A stretch of DNA of 64,000 nucleotides from a candidate division FCPU426 bacterium (GTDB lineage Bacteria; Oederibacteriota; Muellerivitia; Muellerivitales; Muellerivitaceae): positions 288,001-352,000 of the forward strand of contig CAVRAL010000001.1 of NCBI GenBank assembly GCA_963719085.1, in the 5' to 3' direction. Positions within the stretch are counted from its first letter, which is position 1, and every line of letters begins with the position of its first letter. The translations under genes were made by a program, and so were the position numbers. Below the pieces are notes generated by a model, which saw nothing but the letters and a program-made list of their open reading frames with translations, was not told the DNA's origin and did not search any database. Below, one piece after another: positions 3,449 to 63,151 of the stretch.

Positions 3449-3512
3449 AGCGATGGGCCGGCGGTTCTTTTTCGGTCCATAAATGTTTGGGAAATAAATT
3501 TTGTCTAGCTGC

Positions 3513-3546
3513 AAAAGGCTGGACGGGAAACCGTCCGGCCTTTTTT
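3513..3546 (+). terminator. Intrinsic (bidirectional-type) terminator
   Basis: aaaaggctggacgg-gaaa-ccgtccggcc-tttttt hairpin downstream of ybhB-like gene. Confidence 0.8.
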
Positions 3547-3567
3547 GTTTTGGAAAGATTTTGTGTC

Positions 3568-3718
3568 ATTCGTCATTGCGAGGAGTGTTGTTCATTGGTT
3601 TTAGCGACGAAGCAATCTCAGTTTATGGACATCGAAATACGCCTCCGACGTCATACACAAAAACAACCCAAAAACTTGGATTGCCGCGTCACAAAATCCG
3701 TTCCTCGCAATGACGAAT
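3568..3718. repeat. Palindromic REP/RPE-like element (GTCATTGCGAGG type)
   Basis: Perfect 17-bp terminal inverted repeats attcgtcattgcgagga / tcctcgcaatgacgaat; inner arms gacgaagcaatc / gattgccgcgtc. Confidence 0.75.
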
Positions 3719-3835
3719 AATCGGGTATTTCAGGTCCCGAACCCCTCCGGGATTTACGCCCTCCGGGAGTGCGTCCGGGACTAACATTTGATCCTCAACT
3801 GTTTAGAGACGGTATCAATTTTTTCAGGTCTAGGG

Positions 3836-27315: not shown

Positions 27316-27474
27316 TTAACTCTTCCAGACGCTTCGGTCCAAATTTTGGTATTGGATGGCTTCCACGATATAGGACGATTGATATTTTCCTCGTTGTCCA
27401 GGTCCGCGATGGTGCGGGCGACCTTCAAGATGCGGTCAAAGGCCCGGGCGGACAATCCAAACCGATCCACGGCG
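27316..27474 (-). pseudogene. comM: Duplicated 3' fragment of comM (att-like direct repeat)
   Basis: Matches 30362-30521 with about 12 substitutions and a 1-bp deletion by manual alignment; encodes [24 protein letters not shown]. Confidence 0.9.
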
Positions 27475-30361: not shown

Positions 30362-31897
30362 CTAACTTTTCCAGACGCTCCGGTCCAAATTCCGGTATTG
30401 GATGGCCTCGGCGATATAGGACGATTTGATGTTTTCCTCGTTGTCCAGGTCCGCGATGGTGCGGGCGACCTTCAAGATGCGGTCAAAGGCCCGGGCGGAT
30501 AATCCAAACCGGTCCATGGCGACTTTTAAGAGGGCCAAGGACGGTTCGTCCAAAGCCGCGTGTTTTTTCATCAAGGCCGGCGTCATCTGGGAATTGCAAT
30601 GGATGCCTTCGCCTTCATAGCGCTTAATTTGTATGGCCCTGGCCCGCGCCACCCTTTCCCGGATCGCGGCGGAAGGTTCGGCGGGCTCGTCTCCCGCGAT
30701 TTCTTTCCACTTGAGGGCGGGGACCTCAATATGAAGGTCGATGCGGTCCAAAAGGGGCCCTGAGATGCGGCTTAAATATTTTTGGATTTGATGGGGCGCG
30801 CAGATGCATTTGCGGGATGGGTCGGTGAAGTAGCCGCAGGGGCAGGGGTTCATGGCCGCCGCCAGCATGAATTGGGCGGGGAAGGTGAGCGAGGATTGGA
30901 CCCTGGCGATGGTGACCGAGCCGTCTTCCAAGGGTTGGCGCAAGACTTCCAAGACGTTTTTATTAAATTCCGGAAACTCATCCAAAAATAAAACCCCGTT
31001 ATGGGACAAACTCACTTCGCCGGGCTTGGGAATGGTGCCGCCGCCGATAAGCCCGGCGTCCGAAACCGTGTGATGGGGCGAGCGAAAGGCCCGGGTGGCC
31101 ACCAGGGCTTTGCGCCGCCCCAGGGTTCCGGCGATGGAATGGATCTTGGTGGTCTGGATCGCTTCTTCCAACGACAGCGGCGGCAGGATAGTCGGAAGTC
31201 TTTTGGTCAGCATGGTTTTGCCCGAGCCCGGCGGGCCCACCAACAAAATGTTGTGGCCGCCGGCCGCGCCGATTTCCAGCGCCCGCTTGGCGTGCTCCTG
31301 GCCCTTGACGTCGGAAAAATCAAATTTGTAGGTGGAGTGCTGCTTGAACTCCTCCTCAACGTTGACCTCGATGGGCCGGAGCGTTTTTGTCCCCAGTAAG
31401 AACTCGTAAATTTCCCGCAAGGTTTTGACGGCGTAAATCGGGATTTCCCGGACCACGCCGGCTTCCTTCGCGTTGTCCACGGGAACCAACAATCCTTTGA
31501 CTTTGGATTCGCGGGCCGCCAAGGCGATGGAAAGGGCGCCCCGGATGGGCCTGATTTTTCCATCGAGGGAAAGCTCCCCGACCATCCAGTAGCCTTCCAA
31601 CGCTTTGGCGGGGATCACGCCTGAGGCGGCCAAGATTCCCACCGCGATCGGCAGGTCGAAGGACGGGCCTTCTTTTTTAGTATCGGCGGGGGCGAGATTG
31701 ACCGTGATGCGCTGGATGGGGAAAGCGAATTGGGAATTGGTGACGGCGCTTTTCACCCGGTCTTTGGACTCCTTGACGGCGGCGTCCGGCAGTCCTACGG
31801 TTTGAAAGGTGGGAAGGCCCGGGCTGATGTCGACCTCCACATCCACCGGGTAGGCATCGATCCCTAAGAGGGCGGCGCTTTTAATGTTGGAAAGCAT
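30362..31897 (-). CDS. comM: YifB/ComM Mg-chelatase-like AAA+ ATPase
   Basis: VGLPDAAVKES, GPPGSGKT, FRSPHH, LFLDE, NPCPCG, SGPLLDRID. Confidence 0.95.
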   Translation of the reverse strand: MLSNIKSAALLGIDAYPVDVEVDISPGLPTFQTVGLPDAAVKESKDRVKSAVTNSQFAFPIQRITVNLAPADTKKEGPSFDLPIAVGILAASGVIPAKALEGYWMVGELSLDGKIRPIRGALSIALAARESKVKGLLVPVDNAKEAGVVREIPIYAVKTLREIYEFLLGTKTLRPIEVNVEEEFKQHSTYKFDFSDVKGQEHAKRALEIGAAGGHNILLVGPPGSGKTMLTKRLPTILPPLSLEEAIQTTKIHSIAGTLGRRKALVATRAFRSPHHTVSDAGLIGGGTIPKPGEVSLSHNGVLFLDEFPEFNKNVLEVLRQPLEDGSVTIARVQSSLTFPAQFMLAAAMNPCPCGYFTDPSRKCICAPHQIQKYLSRISGPLLDRIDLHIEVPALKWKEIAGDEPAEPSAAIRERVARARAIQIKRYEGEGIHCNSQMTPALMKKHAALDEPSLALLKVAMDRFGLSARAFDRILKVARTIADLDNEENIKSSYIAEAIQYRNLDRSVWKS

Positions 31898-32093
31898 GAA
31901 TTTTCCATGAAATCTGAAGAGGTTAAAAAAACGAAAACGTATAAGTTTCATAACAATTCATGGATAATAAATCAAGGTAAAATGTTGCATAAATAGTACT
32001 ATTTTAAAGCGGGGCCCGCCGTCACACTTGAAAAGGCTTTGGGAGGCGGTTAAGATACGGCTCCCGTTTTACCAATTAAATCAAGAGGAATTC

Positions 32094-32503: not shown

Positions 32504-32576
32504 TTTGCATTGATGAAGGCTGATGAAGACGGATGGAAAATACCCATCAATCTTTATCATTGTTTATCAATGCAAA
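32504..32576. repeat. REP-like palindrome, family R2 (uninterrupted copy)
   Basis: tttgcattgat / atcaatgcaaa terminal IR with internal ~10-mer GAANNCNGAT repeats. Confidence 0.6.
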
Positions 32577-33123: not shown

Positions 33124-34971
33124 TCAACCGTGGGTGGGCGAAGAGGGCATGGGCGGCGCCTCGGTTTCCTCAATCAGTTCATCCGTAGGCAGGTGGGTCA
33201 TGGGAGCGATCACTTCCATGGCTTCCAACACCTGGGCTTCCTGCTCGATGTTATCCACATTGACATTGGCGATGGCGTTCAAAACCGACTGGCCTTCCGA
33301 GGGCAGGTCGTCAAACACATAGCCGTCCAAAGCCGAAACCGGCAGAGGAAGATCGGGGTTGTAAAGGGGGATATCCCCCAGCGGGCCTTCGGGCAAGATC
33401 ATGGGCCGGGCGACAACGGGCGCCGGGGGTTCGTAGGCGGGCGCTTCGACGGGTTCATGAACCGGGGCGGCTTCTTCCGCCACAGGCTCAACTTCAACCG
33501 GTGCCGCTTCGACAACGGGTTCAGGCGCGGGTGGAACCGGCGCGGGCGGCGGAGTGGCGGCTTTGGGTATCGGGGGGACGGGCGCCGCTGAAATGACGGG
33601 CGCGGCAGGAGCTTTAGGAATCGGCGGCATAGTCCCCATAGGGGGGGCGGAGGCGGCCACCGGGGGCGCCGCGGGGGCTGGTGCCACGGGGATTGGGGGA
33701 GCGACGGGAGCCGCCGGCGCGGGCGCGCCAGGATTTTTAGCGGCCCTGGCCTTGGCCAAAACCTGTTTCAAATGTTCCTTCGGATCCAATAATTTCACGC
33801 CGCCTGGATCACCCGGAGACGCCGGCGAAGCGGGGGCGGACGAGGCGGATTCCGTTGGCGCGGCCGCTGAAGCGGAAGCTTCGGCCGGCGCGGCGGCGGG
33901 CGCTGGTTCGGCCGCCGAACCGGCGGGCGCGTCCTGGCGCTTGATGTCGAGCAGTTCGTCGACTTGGGCCAGGTCAATGTTCTTCAGTTTGGCGAGCCGG
34001 GTCTTGGCCTCGTCCACCATGGCGCCGGTGTCATGGATGCGGATGAATTTTTCATACTCGGCCACGGCCTTTTCCGTGATGCCCTTGTTCTCGTAAACCT
34101 GCCCCAAAATGAAATGGGCGTTGGCGTAGCTGGGCTCCAGCTTGATGGCCACGCGGTACTCGTTGATGGCTTGCTTATAAAGGCGCAGCTTGTCGTAAAT
34201 CAGTCCCAGGGTATTGTGGGCCTTGGCGCTTTGGGGATTGAGCGTGACCACGGACACGAATGATTCCACCGCCTTTTGGAAATCGCCTTTGCGCTCATAG
34301 GCGAAACCCATGGCCATGAAGGAAGACTCAAAACGGGGATCCAGGCGGCAGGCTTCCTGGAACGACTTGACGGCCTTGTCCAAAAATTGCTGTTTGGCGT
34401 AAAGCACGCCCATGTCGTAGGCGATCTTGGCTTTGTTTTTTCCGCTCTTGGCCGCTTCCTCTAATTTTTTAAGGGCGGTTTCCATATTGCCCGCGGTGTC
34501 TTTGTCGATGCCCAGGCGGTGGTAGGATTCGGTGTAGGAGGGATCCAATTCCATCGCCACTTGGAATTCTTTCATGGCCTTGGCGTATTGACCCAATTCG
34601 TAATAGACGTTGCCCAAGTTGTTGAAGTAAGTGGCGATTTTGGGATTGCGGTAGATCGCGTCCTCGAACACTTTGATGGCGTCGTTGTAGCGCTCGGTGC
34701 GGGCGTAGGCCAGGCCTAAATTGTTCCAGGCTTCGGGGGCGGCGTTTTCGACCGTGGTGGCTTTTTTGAAGGCCATGATGGCCTCGTCGTTTTGGCCCAG
34801 GTCGGAATAAATGAAACCCGTGGCCGTATAGGCTTCCATATAGTTGGGATCAATATCGAGGGCTTTTTGGATTTCCTTCAGGGCCTTGGCGCTATCGCCT
34901 TGTTCCGCCAGTTTCTGGGCGGACTCAACGAGTTCTTTCTTTTTGTCGTCTTTGCTTCCGAATAGGGCCAT
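33124..34971 (-). CDS. TPR protein with Pro/Ala-rich linker and acidic tail
   Basis: Multiple TPRs (AWNNLGLAY, YFNNLGNVY, AHNTLG) followed by low-complexity region. Confidence 0.85.
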   Translation of the reverse strand: MALFGSKDDKKKELVESAQKLAEQGDSAKALKEIQKALDIDPNYMEAYTATGFIYSDLGQNDEAIMAFKKATTVENAAPEAWNNLGLAYARTERYNDAIKVFEDAIYRNPKIATYFNNLGNVYYELGQYAKAMKEFQVAMELDPSYTESYHRLGIDKDTAGNMETALKKLEEAAKSGKNKAKIAYDMGVLYAKQQFLDKAVKSFQEACRLDPRFESSFMAMGFAYERKGDFQKAVESFVSVVTLNPQSAKAHNTLGLIYDKLRLYKQAINEYRVAIKLEPSYANAHFILGQVYENKGITEKAVAEYEKFIRIHDTGAMVDEAKTRLAKLKNIDLAQVDELLDIKRQDAPAGSAAEPAPAAAPAEASASAAAPTESASSAPASPASPGDPGGVKLLDPKEHLKQVLAKARAAKNPGAPAPAAPVAPPIPVAPAPAAPPVAASAPPMGTMPPIPKAPAAPVISAAPVPPIPKAATPPPAPVPPAPEPVVEAAPVEVEPVAEEAAPVHEPVEAPAYEPPAPVVARPMILPEGPLGDIPLYNPDLPLPVSALDGYVFDDLPSEGQSVLNAIANVNVDNIEQEAQVLEAMEVIAPMTHLPTDELIEETEAPPMPSSPTHG

Positions 34972-40008: not shown

Positions 40009-41084
40009 TGGAGTTATTAAACCAAGGCAACGGCCAACACAATTTTCACCGCCAAGACGCCAAGCTCGCCAAGAAAATCAAGAAACAATCGAGTTTTGAA
40101 AAACATTCATTTTTTAGCCTTACTTGGCGCACTTGGCGGCCACTCTTCCATAAAACAGTTAATGAGGGTGGCGCTGTCCCGCTTGTTTGGCCCAAGAGTG
40201 GGCCAGCGGGACGTCTTGGCGGTGAAAGGGTATTCAGTGTTTTGGCTTTGTTTGTTTGTCTTATGACAGTACCTTTGGCGGCCGTGGCGCAAACGCCCGT
40301 GCCGACCCCTTCGGCCAATACCTGGGACTATGCCGCTTTCCAAGCCGCCTTTAAGGCCAGCGGCCGCACGACGACCTTAACCCAGGAAAAGTTTGACGCG
40401 GTTCAGGTTCAAAAGAAGAAAGCCTATGACTATTTGAAGACCTATCTGGATGGCAAGTTCGGTAAGGCCAATCCCGCGGTCTTGGCCGGTTTCCAAGCTC
40501 TGCCGCGCGAGTATTACCACTACAACTACCAGAAGGGCAAAGATTTCTGCTCTTTGGCCTATGACATTCCCGGCAAGCCCTGGGCCATCGGTTATGGCTC
40601 CGCCTTGAGCGATTACCCCGGCCAGGCCTATATGATTCAGTTGGCCAGGCCGAAGCCCACGGATGTGGCTTTAGAAATTGGGACGGGAAGCGGTTACAAC
40701 ATTTCACTGCTCTCAAAAACAGTGAAGGAAGCCTACTCAATTGAGATCATCCAGCCTTTGGGTGAGGCGGTCTCCAACATTTTCGCGCCGCTTCATTTGA
40801 CCAACATCCATACCCGGGTCGGGGACGGCTTTTTCGGTTGGCCGGAGGTGAAGGGCGGGTTCAATTTGATCGTGGTTACCTGCGCCGCCCAATATGTGCC
40901 GCCCCAGCTTTTAGAACAGCTCAAGCCCAACGGCCGCATGATCATCCCCATCGGCCAGCCCTTCCGCGGCCATCAGGTGCTTTATGTCTATATGAAGGAC
41001 GCCGACGGCAAGGTTCATTCGAAGAAGGATATGGGCGTGTTCTTTATCCCGATGACGGGGCAGATGCAGAAGGGGAAGACGTAG
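40005..41084 (+). CDS. pcm: Protein-L-isoaspartate O-methyltransferase-like protein with signal-peptide-like N-terminus
   Basis: LEIGTGSGY, YSIEII, GDGFFGWPE, QLKPNGRMIIPIG, FIPMTG; ATGA overlap with upstream gene. Confidence 0.85.
   Translation: MMELLNQGNGQHNFHRQDAKLAKKIKKQSSFEKHSFFSLTWRTWRPLFHKTVNEGGAVPLVWPKSGPAGRLGGERVFSVLALFVCLMTVPLAAVAQTPVPTPSANTWDYAAFQAAFKASGRTTTLTQEKFDAVQVQKKKAYDYLKTYLDGKFGKANPAVLAGFQALPREYYHYNYQKGKDFCSLAYDIPGKPWAIGYGSALSDYPGQAYMIQLARPKPTDVALEIGTGSGYNISLLSKTVKEAYSIEIIQPLGEAVSNIFAPLHLTNIHTRVGDGFFGWPEVKGGFNLIVVTCAAQYVPPQLLEQLKPNGRMIIPIGQPFRGHQVLYVYMKDADGKVHSKKDMGVFFIPMTGQMQKGKT
40044..40227. repeat. REP-like palindrome R1 inside the pcm 5' coding region
   Basis: Left arm tttcaccgccaagacgccaagctcgccaag; right arm cttggcgcacttggcg[insert]cgtcttggcggtgaaa. 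Confidence 0.85.
40139..40211 (-). mobile_element. 73-nt two-hairpin mini-element (copy C)
   Basis: Interrupts the R1 arm; flanked by a CG duplication. Confidence 0.75.
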
Positions 41085-47267: not shown

Positions 47268-47398
47268 GGAAGGTCTCCTTCAACTTGTTCTTCCGTGAAT
47301 TTTGAGCCTTGAGCCGGCCCAATCGCAAGAGCGGGCGGAAAAAAATCCGCCGGTCTTTGAGGATTAAGACCTTCTAACAAAGTTAAAAGGCAATTGAG

Positions 47399-47563
47399 CA
47401 ATGATGCCCCGGGACCCCATTGAAGGAGTCAAGGAGGCCCGGGACAATACCGCTCTCTCTTGACTCCTTTATGGAAGAGCGGCGCGGACGCAGATAAACG
47501 CCGATTTATGATAAACATGGGATTAGGCAGCTTTTTATCGGCGTTCATCCGCATTTATCATTG
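47399..47563. repeat. REP-like palindrome R2 containing mini-element copy A (47408-47483)
   Basis: caatgat..ggacgcagataaacgccgat / atcggcgttcatccgcatttatcattg arms. Confidence 0.75.
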
Positions 47564-47587
47564 TTAAATTGGTTTTTGTTAGAGGCT

Positions 47588-48334
47588 CTAAGGCTGCGCG
47601 GCGAGGGGAGCGGTCGCCAAGCTGAGCAGGGACAGGGTCAGCACCAGGAAAACATATTGGAAAAGGCCCACATTGTCGGCCTCGTCCGGGACTTGCCGGC
47701 GAAAGGCCTGGAAGAGGGCAAAGCCCAACAGCGCTAAAAGCAGATATTCCCGGGTCAAGGTCAGCGCCAAGCCGATGCCGGCGACGGCAAGCCAGCGTTG
47801 GGGCCGGTTGAGCGAATGAAAGCCCCGTCCGCCGTCCAACTGCCAAAAGGGAATGAGGTTGAACAGATTGATCCAGGCCCCGGTATGGGCGATGGCGGAC
47901 CAGATGCCGTATTGGGTAAAAAGATAAGCCGCCCAGGCGGCGACAGCGGCCCCTAATCCCCAAAAGGGACCGGCGAGCCCGACTCGGGCGTCTTGGATGG
48001 GATTGGAAAAGGATTGCTGGACCCGGATGAAGGCGCCGACGAAAGGAATAAAAAGGGGGGCGGTGGCCTCGATGCCGTAGCTTCGCAGTTTGGCCACGTG
48101 GCCCATCTCATGGATATAAATGGAAAGCACGAAACCCAAGGCGAAAGGCCAGCCCCATTGGTGCCAATAAACGCCGAAAAACAAAAGCATGGATAAAAGT
48201 GTTTTGATTTTAAGAAGGCCCAGCAACAAAAACTTAAATTTGGCGAAGAGCAGGGCCAAGACCGCCAGGATGCTCCATCGGCCTGAGGTGTTTTTCGGTT
48301 TTTGGGAGGGAGTCAGGTCAAATTCGTCGCTCAT
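47588..48334 (-). CDS. Site-2 protease (M50) family metallopeptidase
   Basis: HEMGH, LAGP, NLIPFWQLDGGR. Confidence 0.9.
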   Translation of the reverse strand: MSDEFDLTPSQKPKNTSGRWSILAVLALLFAKFKFLLLGLLKIKTLLSMLLFFGVYWHQWGWPFALGFVLSIYIHEMGHVAKLRSYGIEATAPLFIPFVGAFIRVQQSFSNPIQDARVGLAGPFWGLGAAVAAWAAYLFTQYGIWSAIAHTGAWINLFNLIPFWQLDGGRGFHSLNRPQRWLAVAGIGLALTLTREYLLLALLGFALFQAFRRQVPDEADNVGLFQYVFLVLTLSLLSLATAPLAAQP

Positions 48335-52814: not shown

Positions 52815-54923
52815 TTACAGCGGTTGATGGGTCGGTAGCGCTTTGAAAGGCGATCGGTCCTGGGTCAGGGCCGCTTGGTAGAAATCGTAAAGTTGTTTGT
52901 ACTCATCGCCCGGCAAAATCGTCCGTTTTTTCAGGCCCATATAACGCTCATAACTTAAGGTCCCGAATTGGATCTTCGAGTCGGCGATGAACTCCGCCAC
53001 GTTGTTGGAAATGGCCCCATCCTTGGGCAGGTCGCCGACTTTGTAACCCGGCGGCAACTTCACCACGACCCGGGTGACCGAGTTAAAGCTTTGGGGAACC
53101 ACGATAGGGGTTTTCCGGGTTTCACGCAAAGTCGCGAGGAAATCTTCCACGTCCTCAAAAATGACCGGGTAAAAGTTAAAGCCGCCCTTGGGCTGGAACT
53201 CGGCGTAGCCGGGAATGGTGAAGGAATATTTCACGTGCAGGGGCTGGGTGGTATCGCGGTAATCGCCGTAGGAATAATCCGTGAGGACGGCGCCCGGAAA
53301 ACGCTTGTTCAAACCCCTCAGGACCAAGTCCTTGCGTTTGTCATCCGTGGTGGCCCTAAAAAATTGGCGCAAGGCCAGGTCCGCCGACCCGAAGGCCTGC
53401 AAGTCCACGGTGCAGTTCAAGTCGCCGTTCGGGGAAAAGGTCATCAGGATGTCCCGTTCTTTGCGGTGGTCCTTGGCGCTGAAAGAAGGCGTGGATTGCC
53501 ATTGAAGCGGCGGCAAAACCGCCAGCGCGGAAAGCCCCAGCGCCTGCAGGGGCAAGGTGCCGGGGGCGGCCAGGGGCTCGGTGGGGTCCAGCCAGATAAA
53601 GTCCTTGCCCTGGGGAACGCCGATTAAGACCCCGTCCAACTGGGAAAGGGCCGGAAGGTCGCCGATCAACTCACCGCTGCCGGCTTGGCGGTAAAGAAAA
53701 AGCTGGGGATTAAGTTTAATGGCCTGGAGCGCGGCCATTAAAAGAAGCGCCATGTCGTGGGACGAGCCCTTGCCGCTGGCGATGATTTCCGCGAAGGGGC
53801 GGTCGGGATTCAAATAAACCGGAAGTCCCGTATCAACCCAGTCGACTTTTTCGTGGACGGTGTTTTTGAGTTTGGTGATCCGGTCGATCAGCGCGTCCGC
53901 CGTATTATCGCCGGCCTCGGCGACCAGCGCGTTGATGGCGGTCGGGTCCTGGGCCAGGGCGTTCTTGACCCTTTGGCGGTAGGGCAGGACAGCTTCTTCC
54001 CAGCTTTTATAAGTGGTGAAGGCGGTCAAGGGAGCCAAGTCTTGGATGGGCGGTTGGAAACTTTCGGAGGGGACCGGCGTGATGGAGGGGTTCATCGCCA
54101 AGTGGATGACGCGGTCTTTGGACCCGGTTTCGGAGATGGCCAGGTTCGCGGGCTGGCGCAGGCGGATGGCGTAAAGGGGCATTTGGGTGGATAGGCTCAG
54201 GGTCAATTCCCGGTTGAGGGAAGCGACATAATCATTCCACCGGAAAGCGAAACTGGGCTCGGCGGCCACCGGATGCTGTTTGGTGGGAGTTTTTAAAAGA
54301 TCGCTGGTGTGGTTGGTCAGGGTATAGGTCACGTCCAGGGCTTCGCCGGCTTGAAGGTCCGGCAGGCTATAAGACGCGATTTTGGAAAGCGCGGGCGGAA
54401 GGTTGGGTTGGGGCGGCTGGGACGTGATGGAAACGCCGGCCATGGATTCTTTCGTGAACCCACCGTCCGTTTCCAATTTGTATTTTTGGATTTGATTGAC
54501 GCTCAGGTCTTGGGATTCCAGGTTCAGGGTGGCCAGCGGGGGCAGGGGACGGTCGGGTTTGACCCGGGCGGCCCACATTTGATGGACGGTGACTTTCATA
54601 CTGCGGTCCAGGTTCCATTCCACCTGGGCCTCGTCCAACAGGTTCAACTGATTGGGAGCGTCGGGCTGGGCGAATTGGCTGGCGGCTTGGGAAAGGGATT
54701 GGGAGACCACGGGATCGTCCTGGGGGGTGATCTGGACCGGATTGGTGGCGCAACCGCTCAAGAAAAAAAGGAAAAACCCAAATCCACCGCAAAGACGCCA
54801 AGACGCCAAGGCAGGCAAGTCGCCGCCGAAATCTCGATTTTGATTTTTAAAAATTAGTTTGATATTCCGGAAAGAGGGGGGTTGCGACTTCCTTGGCGGT
54901 TTGGCGTCTTTGCGGTGAAACAT
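52815..54923 (-). CDS. DUF3857/transglutaminase-like/DUF3858-type lipoprotein
   Basis: LSGC lipobox; WLDPT; C-terminal LPPGYKVGDLP...EYKQLYDFY; ATG 2 nt after the rpe stop. Confidence 0.75.
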   Translation of the reverse strand: MFHRKDAKPPRKSQPPSFRNIKLIFKNQNRDFGGDLPALASWRLCGGFGFFLFFLSGCATNPVQITPQDDPVVSQSLSQAASQFAQPDAPNQLNLLDEAQVEWNLDRSMKVTVHQMWAARVKPDRPLPPLATLNLESQDLSVNQIQKYKLETDGGFTKESMAGVSITSQPPQPNLPPALSKIASYSLPDLQAGEALDVTYTLTNHTSDLLKTPTKQHPVAAEPSFAFRWNDYVASLNRELTLSLSTQMPLYAIRLRQPANLAISETGSKDRVIHLAMNPSITPVPSESFQPPIQDLAPLTAFTTYKSWEEAVLPYRQRVKNALAQDPTAINALVAEAGDNTADALIDRITKLKNTVHEKVDWVDTGLPVYLNPDRPFAEIIASGKGSSHDMALLLMAALQAIKLNPQLFLYRQAGSGELIGDLPALSQLDGVLIGVPQGKDFIWLDPTEPLAAPGTLPLQALGLSALAVLPPLQWQSTPSFSAKDHRKERDILMTFSPNGDLNCTVDLQAFGSADLALRQFFRATTDDKRKDLVLRGLNKRFPGAVLTDYSYGDYRDTTQPLHVKYSFTIPGYAEFQPKGGFNFYPVIFEDVEDFLATLRETRKTPIVVPQSFNSVTRVVVKLPPGYKVGDLPKDGAISNNVAEFIADSKIQFGTLSYERYMGLKKRTILPGDEYKQLYDFYQAALTQDRSPFKALPTHQPL
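54785..54917. repeat. REP-like palindrome R1 in the 5' coding region of the lipoprotein
   Basis: caccgcaaagacgccaagacgccaagg / ccttggcggtttggcgtctttgcggtg (25 of 27 complementary). Confidence 0.85.
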
Positions 54924-59513: not shown

Positions 59514-60862
59514 AAATTCTTGTCATCGACGACGAAAAGTCCATGCATGTGGCCTTGATTCCTTTTTTAAAGGAATTAGGCCATGAGGCCGAATCGGCCT
59601 TCACGGGCACCGAGGGGCGGCAGAAGGCGGCGGCCTTCAAGCCCGATTTGATCCTTTTGGACCTGTACCTGCCGGATGTCACGGGTTTGGAACTTTTAAG
59701 CGGGTTTCAAATGGAGTCGCCCGCGACCGGGGTCATCATTATGACGGCGGCCGCCGCCGTGAAGACCGCGGTGGAAGCCATGAAAAAGGGCGCGGAGGAT
59801 TATCTTCAAAAGCCGCTGAGCCTGGACGACATGGAGCTGGTGCTGGCCCGCTTTTTCAAGACCCAAAATTTGCGCCAGGACGTGGCGGCGCTCAAAGGCA
59901 GGCTGCGGGATGAGCTGGCGAGGGAATTCCTGATTCTTCCCGATCCGGCCATGCAGCCGCTTTACGCCCAAATTGAGCGGGTGGCCGAACAGGACAAGGT
60001 CACGGCTTTGGTCCTGGGTGAGACGGGGACGGGGAAGGAGCATGTGGCCAAGCTCATCCACACCCTGTCGGCGCGGTCGGCCAAGCCTTTCGTGGAACTT
60101 CACTGCGGGGCCCTGCCCGAGACCTTGATGGAATCCGAGCTTTTCGGCTATGAGGCGGGGGCCTTCACGGACGCCCGAAAACAAAAGCAGGGGCTTTTCG
60201 AGGCGGCCCAGGGAGGGAGCCTTTTTTTGGATGAGGTGGGCGAGATGCCTTTGGCCACCCAAACCAAATTATTGAAGGTCCTGGAAGACCGGAAACTGCG
60301 GCGCTTGGGCGGCATTAAGGAAATTGTTTTGGACGTGCGGGTGATCGCGGCCACCCACCGGGACCTGGAAGTGGAAGTGAAAGAAGGCCGTTTCCGGGCC
60401 GACCTTTATTACCGGCTCAACGTGATTCCTTTGAAACTTCCGCCCTTGCGCCAAAGGCCCGAGGATATCGCGGCCTTGGCGGTGTTTTTTTGGGAAGAAG
60501 CGGCCCGGGATTTCGGGCGCAAAATGGAGCCGCTTCCGGAGCCCGTCATGGAAAAATTAATGGCTTACCCCTGGCCGGGCAACGTGCGGGAACTTAAAAA
60601 CGCGGTCAACCGCATGGTGATCGGATCCCAGGGCGGCCGGGTGGGCTGGGGCGACCTGCCGGATGAGATCGCGGCCTTTGAGCCTTCGCTCCCGGAAAAC
60701 GCGGGCGAGGAATCGTTGGTTTTGGAAAAGGGCTCCAGCGAAAAAGATATGGTGGAAAAAGCCCTTCAACAGTCCCGGTGGAATAAATCCAAGGCCGCGG
60801 AGCTTTTGGGGGTCACCCGCAAGACGCTCTTCAACAAGATGAAAAAATACGACATCCACTAA
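59510..60862 (+). CDS. Sigma54-dependent response regulator (NtrC/AtoC family)
   Basis: REC, GETGTGKE, ESELFG, GAFTDA, WPGNVREL, Fis HTH. Confidence 0.95.
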   Translation: MKILVIDDEKSMHVALIPFLKELGHEAESAFTGTEGRQKAAAFKPDLILLDLYLPDVTGLELLSGFQMESPATGVIIMTAAAAVKTAVEAMKKGAEDYLQKPLSLDDMELVLARFFKTQNLRQDVAALKGRLRDELAREFLILPDPAMQPLYAQIERVAEQDKVTALVLGETGTGKEHVAKLIHTLSARSAKPFVELHCGALPETLMESELFGYEAGAFTDARKQKQGLFEAAQGGSLFLDEVGEMPLATQTKLLKVLEDRKLRRLGGIKEIVLDVRVIAATHRDLEVEVKEGRFRADLYYRLNVIPLKLPPLRQRPEDIAALAVFFWEEAARDFGRKMEPLPEPVMEKLMAYPWPGNVRELKNAVNRMVIGSQGGRVGWGDLPDEIAAFEPSLPENAGEESLVLEKGSSEKDMVEKALQQSRWNKSKAAELLGVTRKTLFNKMKKYDIH

Positions 60863-60883
60863 GAACTTCTAACAAAAACCTAA

Positions 60884-61061
60884 TTCACCGCCCCGCCCGG
60901 CCTAGTTAGGCCGAACCAGGCGGGACATACCACCCTCAATATCATTTTATATATGGATGGTGGTGCCAAGACGCTCCCGGCGGCCGTAGTTCAGGCCAAT
61001 CGGCCGGGACATATCGCCTTCTTAATTATTTTTGTCAGGAGGGCGATGCAAGCTCGCCAAG
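60884..61061 (+). repeat. R1 arm interrupted by two 73-nt mini-elements (D 60892-60964, E 60975-61047)
   Basis: Removing both inserts and one copy of each GC duplication restores ttcaccgccaagacgcaagctcgccaag. Confidence 0.8.
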
Positions 61062-61072
61062 AAAAAAGGCCG

Positions 61073-61150
61073 CATCCGTGTTCATCTGCGCGCGCGCCGC
61101 TCCACCCTCTATGAGCAAAGGGAGAGCGGCGTTGTCCCGGGCATCTGTGG
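61073..61150 (-). repeat. R2-type arm with truncated mini-element F (61096-61141)
   Basis: Minus strand: cacagatg-cccgggacaac-gccgctctc...ggagcggc-gcgcgcgcagatgaacacggat. Confidence 0.65.
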
Positions 61151-61297
61151 CAAAACCTGTTTTGGCGTTGTTTTTTTCCTCTTTAAAGACTTACCCAATT
61201 TGCGCTTTCGGATTACCCCTTTTGGGTAATTTTGAGAAGTGGTTTCCCCTCCCAGGCTTTTTACCCTTTTATTTTATCGTTTTTCCTTGGTTTTTTT

Positions 61298-62198: not shown

Positions 62199-62975
62199 AT
62201 GATGGAACCCAAAACCCTGAAGGCGCTCATCGTGGATGTCCGGCCTCAAACCCGGCGCCAGACCGCGGATAAACTGCGGGAGCTGGGTTTTGACGTGGTG
62301 GAAACCGAATCGGCGGGATCCCTCCCCGGGATTTTAGCCAGCCACCGGCCGGATTTGGTGATCACGGCTTGGGACATTCCCGGGTTGAAGGGTTTGAAAC
62401 TTTTGGACCAATTGGGGCCCCGGGAGCGGGATGTTTATCTCTTTACGGAAGAGCCGCTGGAAGATTACCGGGATTTATTGCATCGCACCAGTGTGAAAGC
62501 CTGGTTTCACATGACTGAGAGGGTGGAACTTATGGAGAACGTCAAAGAAATGATGGGAAGCCAACAAGACAGCCGGAGGGGCGCGGGCCCTTTCGGGAGA
62601 AAAATAGTTTTACTGATTGAGCCCTTCGTCGACTTGCGCGATTTTTTAAAATTGACGCTGCTTCGGGCTTTGCCCCAAGCTTTCGTGCGCGAAGCCGTGG
62701 AGGGAAGCCAGGTGCTTTCGGAGCTCACCCACAACCCCATCGACCTTATTTTTCTGGACCTGGACACGCCGACCCTGGATGGGCGGGCTTTTTTAAAGAT
62801 GGTGCACGGCGATCCGCGCCTTTCGCGAAAACCCATCGTGGTCCTGGCCGGCCGGATCACCCCGGAGCTTTTAAAGGAGTTCCAGCAAGACCGGGCGATT
62901 TGGTTTATCGAGAAGCCGGCGCAAGCCGAGGAAATCAGCGAAGTCATCGGGCGTTTTTTGAGAAGGGATTATTAG
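62199..62975 (+). CDS. Tandem REC-REC protein (degenerate)
   Basis: REC1 has Ala at the phosphoacceptor position (DLVITAWDIP); REC2 has DLIFLDLDTP...EKP. Confidence 0.8.
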   Translation: MMEPKTLKALIVDVRPQTRRQTADKLRELGFDVVETESAGSLPGILASHRPDLVITAWDIPGLKGLKLLDQLGPRERDVYLFTEEPLEDYRDLLHRTSVKAWFHMTERVELMENVKEMMGSQQDSRRGAGPFGRKIVLLIEPFVDLRDFLKLTLLRALPQAFVREAVEGSQVLSELTHNPIDLIFLDLDTPTLDGRAFLKMVHGDPRLSRKPIVVLAGRITPELLKEFQQDRAIWFIEKPAQAEEISEVIGRFLRRDY

Positions 62976-62995: not shown

Positions 62996-63151
62996 CAATG
63001 ATGTCCCGGGTCCCCCTATTGAAGTCAAAGCCGCCCGGGACAATGTCGCTCACCCCTAAACTGTTTTATGCAGAAGCGGCGCGGACGCTGATCAACGCTG
63101 ATAAAAAAACAAGACATTTGGTTCAAACCAATCCGCGTTCATCAATGCGGA
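62996..63151. repeat. REP-like palindrome R2 containing mini-element copy B (63005-63080)
   Basis: caatgat..ggacgctgatcaacgctgat / atccgcgttcatcaatgc arms. Confidence 0.7.

Follow-up and report, generated by a model that had tools for sequence, protein, structure and literature searches.

Two-hairpin repeats of about 75 nt in the arms of REP-like palindromes of a candidate division FCPU426 bacterium

The window analysed here, a stretch of 64 000 nucleotides from a candidate division FCPU426 bacterium, contains REP-like palindromes of two types, R1 and R2. Some of their arms are interrupted by a short piece that folds as two hairpins, and at one locus two such pieces sit in a single arm. The question raised by this locus is whether the pieces are DNA inserted into palindromes that existed before them, a standing part of a composite repeat, or a structured RNA found there by accident, and, if they were inserted, what kind of enzyme might have moved them.

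Six related copies of the piece, with the layout reported by an earlier reading of the DNA (the sequence-only reading), are present in the window (table 1). All six are intergenic and most lie just 3' of a stop codon; copy B, for example, starts 30 nt past the stop of the gene 62199-62975. Five of the six (A-E) are full length. The element measures 74-78 bp, is non-coding and carries two unlike hairpins at its extreme ends. Hairpin 1, at the 5' end, is G+C-rich and closed by CCCG/CGGG, with a loop of 20-24 nt that includes an inner stem; in copies C, D and E this inner stem is of the GGCC type and is accompanied by a 5-nt bulge on the 3' side. Hairpin 1 is followed in all copies by an invariant ACA, then by a linker of 1-3 nt and by hairpin 2, which has 5-11 pairs and an A+T-rich loop. 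The pairing of hairpin 2 is conserved and its sequence is not.

The two hairpins of one unit are unrelated in sequence. The left end of the element is conserved (YCCCG), the right ends differ among the copies, and the two ends (CCCG... and ...GGTGGT, GCGAT or GTGGC) do not form an inverted repeat. The sequences of the copies contain neither terminal inverted repeats nor coding capacity; the spurious ORFs that run across copies A and B do not have even 5-residue words in common. Copies C, D and E are strongly diverged, with 33 of about 73 columns invariant.

Table 1. Positions of the element copies and of interrupted and uninterrupted palindrome arms in the window.
Feature	Positions	Strand	Description
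Copy A, subfamily 1	47408-47483	+	76 nt, left arm of R2-type palindrome; CCCGGG-closed hairpin 1, linker ACAAT, hairpin 2
Copy B, subfamily 1	63005-63080	+	76 nt, left arm of R2-type palindrome
Copy C, subfamily 2	40137-40213	-	75-nt insert, right arm of R1 palindrome 40045-40226
Copy D, subfamily 2	60890-60967	+	75-nt insert behind head of R1 arm
Copy E, subfamily 2	60975-61048	+	74-nt insert, R1 arm
Copy F, subfamily 1	61096-61141	-	R2-type right arm; hairpin 2 intact, hairpin 1 reduced to a single CCCGGG
R1-type arm cut into three by D and E	60884-61066	+	
Intact left arm of R1 palindrome (empty reference)	40045-40077	+	
Uninterrupted R1-type palindrome	54785-54917		30-nt arms, 90% complementary
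Uninterrupted R2-type palindrome	32504-32576		both arms without insert
Right arm opposite copy A (empty R2 site)	47537-47565	-	corresponding position without insert

The limits of the family in the window were established by two kinds of search. A strict descriptor, which requires CCCG and CGGGACA with two or more additional pairs between them, then 0-4 nt of linker and a perfect stem of 5 bp or longer, finds four copies in the 64 kb window, and one match in the reversed-sequence control of all sequence. A covariance model, the check proposed by the sequence-only reading, was trained on copies C, D and E only, and the window was searched with it with all filters switched off. Next in rank to the training sequences come copy A, with 22.4 bits (E = 2.2e-4), and copy B, with 18.8 bits (E = 2.4e-3); copy F obtains only 10.2 bits (E = 0.71). 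There is one further match with E below 0.1, a 36-nt segment within a TPR gene (34888-34923, E = 0.03), which is taken as chance. The family is therefore real, and the window contains six copies and none beyond.

The novelty of the element was judged against Rfam, plasmid and phage collections, and the literature searched. Rfam 15 gives no match at the gathering score in the window and no match touching any copy at E ≤ 1 in a search of the whole window; at E ≤ 10, only chance-level matches are found in the region of copies D, E and F (60800-61250). A match to an Rfam family, named beforehand as an observation that would speak against a new element, is thus not found. By blastn, positions 60860-61150 are unmatched in the plasmid and phage collections and positions 47360-47600 are unmatched in plasmids. 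ARAGORN predicts no tRNA genes, and a tRNA-like origin is unsupported.

The clearest evidence on the origin of the copies comes from the comparison of filled with empty sites. Excision of 75 nt (D) and 74 nt (E) from 60884-61066 leaves a sequence identical over 33 nt to the intact arm 40045-40077. Copy D can be excised in four equivalent registers (starts 60890-60893), copy E in a single one (60975-61048). Excision of 75 nt at copy C, possible in three equivalent registers (40137-40211, 40138-40212 and 40139-40213), brings the right arm into agreement with the left arm of its own palindrome over 20 nt, as far as the variable spacer. The sequence-only reading had claimed that deletion restores the host arm, and had regarded a lack of empty sites as a result that would count against it; the window itself supplies three precise filled-versus-empty comparisons, and the restoration of the arms is stronger than was claimed. 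The lengths require correction. The first limits gave 76 nt for A and B and exactly 73 nt for C (40139-40211), D (60892-60964) and E (60975-61047), and the lengths inserted at C, D and E are 75, 75 and 74 nt.

In other genomes 164 R1-type arms are uninterrupted according to a word-spacing heuristic, and the uninterrupted arm is therefore the normal state. Because excision of C, D and E restores the arms, it is well supported that the pieces were inserted into pre-existing palindrome arms, and we consider it very probable that they form an inserted repeat family.

Direct repeats of 2 bp (CG, GC, GC) had been reported at the junctions of C, D and E. The junction repeats found are CG at C (2 nt), GCC at D (3 nt) and none at E (0 nt); a GC repeat at E would require a target with one C fewer than the paralogous arm, and the identity of 2-3 nt at C and D could be chance in G+C-rich flanks (n = 3). 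Target duplication is inconsistent across the copies.

The six copies had also been treated as independent insertions, which does not hold for three of them. Copies A, B and F agree in their flanks over about 30 nt on either side, and these flanks are diverged as much as the element. As both flanks are in common, A, B and F represent a single composite repeat that was copied as a unit and probably derives from one event, rather than three independent insertions; in this repeat the element has a fixed place within an R2 arm. Copy F, described earlier as truncated, retains both flanks: the left one (...CAGATG) and the right one (GCGCGCGCAGATGAAC...) correspond to those of A and B. The deletion affects the loop of hairpin 1 only and lies exactly between two direct CCCGGG repeats; this is the product that slippage would be expected to produce. 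The clearly independent insertions are C, D and E only, at three different positions of the R1 arm.

The copies are placed in their hosts in a regular manner. All six lie in R1- or R2-type arms, which bears out the claim that the element is always found in these palindromes, and hairpin 1 is turned toward the outer end of the host arm in six of six copies, which corresponds to about four independent cases if A, B and F are one event. Each form of the element has its host: the CCCGGG-closed form (A, B and F) is found in R2 and the form with the inner GGCC stem (C, D and E) in R1. With boundaries set as in copy E, the elements start with Y-CCCG and end with YG. In the same register, the left flanks end with YG in five of the six copies (GATG for A, B and F, GACG for C and ACCG for D), and the left flank of E (ACGC) breaks the rule by 1 nt. 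The YG positions coincide with the junctions between the tandem words of the arms; the rule depends on the register chosen and on few cases.

Every full copy folds as two hairpins on both strands, with similar energies and z-scores. The z-scores of the top strand are -3.34 for A, -1.23 for B, -3.61 for C, -4.44 for D, -4.50 for E and -3.08 for F. Copy A is an exception, as its minimum-energy fold is one long hairpin with the two loops paired; this is because loop 1 complements loop 2. The complementarity covers 11 nt (47423-47433 in the hairpin-1 loop, 47458-47468 in the hairpin-2 loop), is perfect, and is absent from the other copies.

Since MAFFT places the 3' strand of hairpin 2 out of register when all copies are aligned, covariation was analysed on a model-based alignment of the five full copies (20 pairs, 88 cells). 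Standard pairs occupy 90.9 per cent of the 88 cells, against 32.5-52.4 per cent after the 3' partners have been shifted by 1-3 columns. In these five sequences, three of which took part in the training of the model and all of which are aligned by fitting to the structure, compensatory changes on both sides are found in 8 of the 20 pairs, a number reached by 9 of 500 shuffles, and the covariation score is 0.410 compared with 0.173 on average for the shuffles, none of which (0 of 500) attains 0.410. The direction of these changes is clear: the stems are maintained and the loops drift, in agreement with the earlier statement that stems covary while loops diverge.

Nothing favours either strand. 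Folding is equal on both, the stem mismatches read from the sequences (about four G-T and about three C-A) reveal no wobble asymmetry, and relative to the flanking genes copies B, D and E are in sense and copies A, C and F in antisense orientation (3 : 3). The equal folding of both strands would suit a structure acting at the level of DNA. Promoter-like and terminator-like sites at the copies do not exceed the numbers obtained with shuffles: one promoter-like match overlaps the 3' end of D, one weak terminator-like match (47409-47396, minus strand) overlaps the first 2 nt of A, and the terminator scan found fewer matches than its shuffles.

Two explanations do without mobility of the element. 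It could be a structured RNA, acting in cis or as a small RNA, present in the palindromes by accident, with covariation reflecting the function of the RNA. The compensatory changes in 8 of 20 pairs, the 90.9 per cent of paired cells, the top-strand z-scores of the full copies (-1.2 to -4.5) and the invariant single-stranded ACA between the helices are consistent with this; however, the reverse strand folds equally well, wobble pairs show no asymmetry between strands, three copies are sense and three antisense to their neighbours, promoter- and terminator-like sites are at chance level, and Rfam yields no match (E ≤ 1 for the whole window, E ≤ 10 locally). Moreover, a gene for an RNA leaves the precise insertion in fixed orientation within arms unexplained, and we regard this explanation as improbable. 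As for the alternative offered by the sequence-only reading, a non-autonomous mobile element or a structured RNA, the part on inserted DNA is well supported, and the evidence speaks neither for nor against a role as RNA. The other explanation is that the element is an old module of a mosaic repeat, which is no longer, or was never, independently mobile and spread with its host repeat only, by composite duplication, recombination or gene conversion between arms, like the BIME-type mosaics; its hairpins would be kept by homogenization of the palindromes or because they stabilize or insulate transcripts. The element at the same position in A, B and F with flanks as diverged as itself, the great divergence of the copies and their location just past stop codons, as for REPs, all agree with such a module. 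Host arms that are identical over 33 nt while their inserts differ also suggest that arms are homogenized or constrained. Against it, C, D and E are found at three different places within the R1 arm, which in-register co-propagation or gene conversion does not yield, the opposite arms of the palindromes of A and C are empty, and the compensatory changes require selection on pairing in each lineage. We consider the mosaic module rather unlikely.

Our main reading, to which we assign a probability of about one half, is that the copies represent a lineage-specific, REP/MITE-like hairpin element, non-autonomous and moved in trans by a structure-recognizing enzyme. The mover would most likely recognize folded single-stranded DNA and not a sequence, as expected of an HUH/Y1 transposase, a RAYT or an enzyme of the IS200/IS605 kind. 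The palindromic arms would expose single-stranded DNA, integration would occur at the word junctions of the arm, and selection for transposition competence would cause the stems to covary and the loops to drift. An HUH-type mechanism is proposed tentatively, because hairpins take the place of inverted repeats, duplication is not consistent, orientation is fixed, the stems covary, and the ends of the element and the target junctions are alike in form. Several observations do not agree with it. The two hairpins are dissimilar and terminal, the distribution of the copies over the strands (four on plus, two on minus) within one replichore does not fit strict insertion on the lagging-strand template, and there are only three clearly independent insertions. 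The window is placed within one replichore because GC skew is positive in 15 of its 15 windows. A Pfam scan of the 50 ORFs of the window detects no transposase, recombinase, HUH (including Y1) or reverse transcriptase family; this agrees with the earlier proposal that the mobilizing enzyme is encoded outside the window. The copies are also far more diverged than those of a recently active MITE.

The sequence-only reading had pointed to IS110-family elements such as IS621, which target REPs with a 2-nt core, and also to HUH transposases, which recognise terminal hairpins. On an IS110/IS1111-type reading the element would be a non-autonomous derivative, mobilized by a DEDD recombinase that uses a guide (bridge) RNA and integrates in a specific orientation into palindromes at a 2-nt core. 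IS110-family elements that target REPs are documented in the portions consulted of PMC1525189 and PMC12288879. Orientation-specific insertion within REP-like arms in six of six copies and the direct repeats of 2-3 nt flanking C and D are compatible with this mechanism. However, the putative cores are unequal (CG at C, GC or GCC at D, none at E, which lacks a junction repeat relative to the intact paralogous arm), and the right ends are not conserved among the copies. One guide RNA could not read right ends that differ. In addition, 75 nt is too short for a guide RNA, and no DEDD gene occurs among the 50 ORFs of the window. Since the junction repeats vary in both length and sequence and the right ends are unconserved, this reading is weaker than the HUH-type one, and we consider it improbable.

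Comparison with known hairpin elements reveals partial likenesses. The ends of IS200/IS605 elements are defined by hairpins, which are similar to each other and subterminal, and not by inverted repeats. These elements insert without target duplication, 3' of one conserved short motif and in an orientation tied to the lagging-strand template, and their transfer as single strands would favour targets that are palindromic and prone to extrusion. The present element is alike in its hairpin-defined ends and its oriented insertion, with a junction identity of 0 (E), 2 (C) or 3 nt (D) in three cases; it differs in that its hairpins are terminal and dissimilar and its copies are divided 4 : 2 between the strands of one replichore. 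At the place of a flanking motif it has, in the chosen register, the left flanks GATG, GACG, ACCG and ACGC. Miniature derivatives of hairpin-ended elements of the IS200/IS605 type, named PATEs, are described in the part consulted of PMC6006769.

The GTAG- and CGTC-tagged superfamilies of the REP/REPIN-RAYT systems are likewise short, dense, intergenic repeats that form hairpins. As far as the sections consulted of PMC3733652 describe them, the CGTC-tagged REPs of Di Nocera et al. (2013) have an 8-9-bp stem that opens with two A-T pairs and encloses a loop of 4-5 nt, and they carry a short CCA-like tail; the tag has the variant TGTC (also CCTC), is unpaired and stands at one end of the palindrome (section 6), and some REPs are nested within other palindromes (section 7). 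In our element TGTC is found directly 5' of the hairpin-1 stem on the reverse strand in six of six copies. The stem and loop are different, as the stem starts with C-G pairs (CCG.../...CGG), the loop of 20-24 nt contains an inner stem, and there is a second hairpin. A REPIN is an inverted doublet of the same REP, whereas here unlike hairpins make up a 75-nt unit, and D and E are in direct orientation. Compensatory changes preserve the hairpins of REPINs as well, according to the part consulted of PMC3116915. RAYT systems have in the same genome a single-copy RAYT (Y1 HUH) gene with the repeats on its flanks, and there is none among the 50 ORFs of the 64 kb window. The element thus has the tag-plus-palindrome idea of REPs, yet it fits no CGTC family, REP doublet or Rfam family.

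REPs are known hot spots for site- and orientation-specific insertion of the insertion sequences ISPpu9, ISPpu10, ISPa11 and ISRm22 (the portion consulted of PMC1525189). REP-like palindromes as targets are common to these and to our element; the insertion sequences are autonomous, longer than 1 kb and contain transposase genes, whereas the element is a non-coding piece of 75 nt. A derivative of an IS110/IS1111 element would have the same 2-nt core and conserved ends, and the cores here are CG, GCC and none; a classical MITE of the DDE type is not recognized either, as there are no terminal inverted repeats and the duplications are inconsistent in length. The very small dispersed repeats (SDR) of cyanobacteria, reportedly presented by Elhai et al. 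in 2008, are said to be tiny non-coding repeats that insert into other repeats with preservation of secondary structure. They are said to be about one-third as long as the present element and confined to cyanobacteria; the likeness is one of description, not of sequence.

The host palindromes have a far wider distribution than the element. The R1 arm is composed of a head, CACCGC, followed by three tandem words of the GCCAAG type. It was searched for in genome contigs with an 18-mer with one degenerate position, and is found near-unchanged in at least 113 loci of other genomes labelled as belonging to more than 10 phyla. Among the loci listed, nearly all from MAGs, are Verrucomicrobiota, Planctomycetota, Acidobacteriota, Chloroflexota and Bacteroidota, and further labels include several proteobacterial classes, Bacillota, Gemmatimonadota, Nitrospirota and others. 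Among the matches listed, a third GCCAAG-type word follows within 14 nt in 68 of 121, and an inverted arm head is present within 400 nt in 51 of 121, at a median distance of 73 nt; the same head occurs in only 178 of 5000 random 400-nt windows of those loci. Arms composed of other words (CACAGAG-type and GAT-type) adjoin the R1 arms in these loci. A search of the literature with the words of the arm sequence did not retrieve a description of the R1 arm.

The element itself was not detected in these loci. The strict descriptor has no match in 1 082 462 nt (the 113 loci of other genomes), and the covariance model, applied to 1.07 Mb (100 of the 113 loci), finds nothing convincing, with two matches at E ≤ 1 (E = 0.13 and 0.42); the loci L101-L113 (about 7.7 kb) were covered by the descriptor search alone. 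A descriptor of hairpin 1 only is not enriched, with 76 matches in the loci of other genomes compared with about 79 in the reversed control. By blastn, the window matches the 113 loci in one diverged gene and in the arms only, so none of those genomes is a close relative. As the R1 arm is found in many phyla and the element in none of these loci, the host is a palindrome family spanning phyla, and the element family is lineage-specific. Such similarity of the arms across phyla is not expected from vertical descent.

Small hairpin inserts in R1 arms are not unique to the lineage of the window. One R1 arm of a betaproteobacterial MAG (L089, 193-317) has a 27-nt insert that includes a hairpin closed by CCCG/CGGG, with no insert in the opposite arm; an insert of this type was seen in 1 of 51 palindromes examined. 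A similar G+C-rich hairpin was noticed by eye in an arm of locus L070 (about 1760-1830). Their homology to the element is no more than putative.

Some palindromes combine arms of different types. The locus 60884-61175 consists of an R1-type left arm and an R2-type right arm (61067-61175, carrying copy F) that are not complementary to each other, and in locus L077 (10001-10070) an R1-type left arm is likewise followed by a right arm of different words. Such non-complementary arms suggest that each arm is a unit in itself and that the hairpin formed between arms is not the conserved feature. Two stretches of about 30 nt located directly behind stop codons (60859-60888 and 47563-47592) are 80 per cent complementary to each other. 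They represent the same leader, running in opposite orientation into the palindromes that host D and A, and the repeat units may therefore extend past the arms.

A more far-reaching view is that the element and its hosts are two products of one undescribed system. A structure-guided enzyme would cut at word junctions, build or maintain the arms of tandem words, and load them with hairpin cargo. The enzyme would hold the element by hairpin 1, and the subfamily-specific sequence would select the type of host. The 3' end of the element would mimic the end of a word, the arm being a head with three tandem words of 8-10 nt. We consider this view hardly probable.

If the main reading is correct and the element is mobile, it would be a very small, purely structural transposable unit, with two unlike hairpins and neither inverted repeats nor target duplication, that picks both position and orientation within another repeat. 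It would offer a compact substrate for finding the recombinase, guided by single strands or by structure, that moves it. The REP-like palindromes of little-studied environmental lineages would then be layered mosaics, as in enterobacteria and cyanobacteria. If the element is only an old mosaic module, it would be ordinary. The host arm, near-unchanged in many phyla, may be a more interesting lead than the element.

Two other repeats were observed in the window. In the intergenic region 3449-3835, two 17-nt sequences (3568-3584/3702-3718) form a perfect inverted repeat across a spacer of 117 nt; this palindromic repeat is of a different sequence type. An intergenic segment of about 158 nt (27317-27474) is 89-96 per cent identical to 30363-30521, and appears to be a partial copy of the 3'-terminal part of gene 30362-31951, which is Mg-chelatase/ComM-like.
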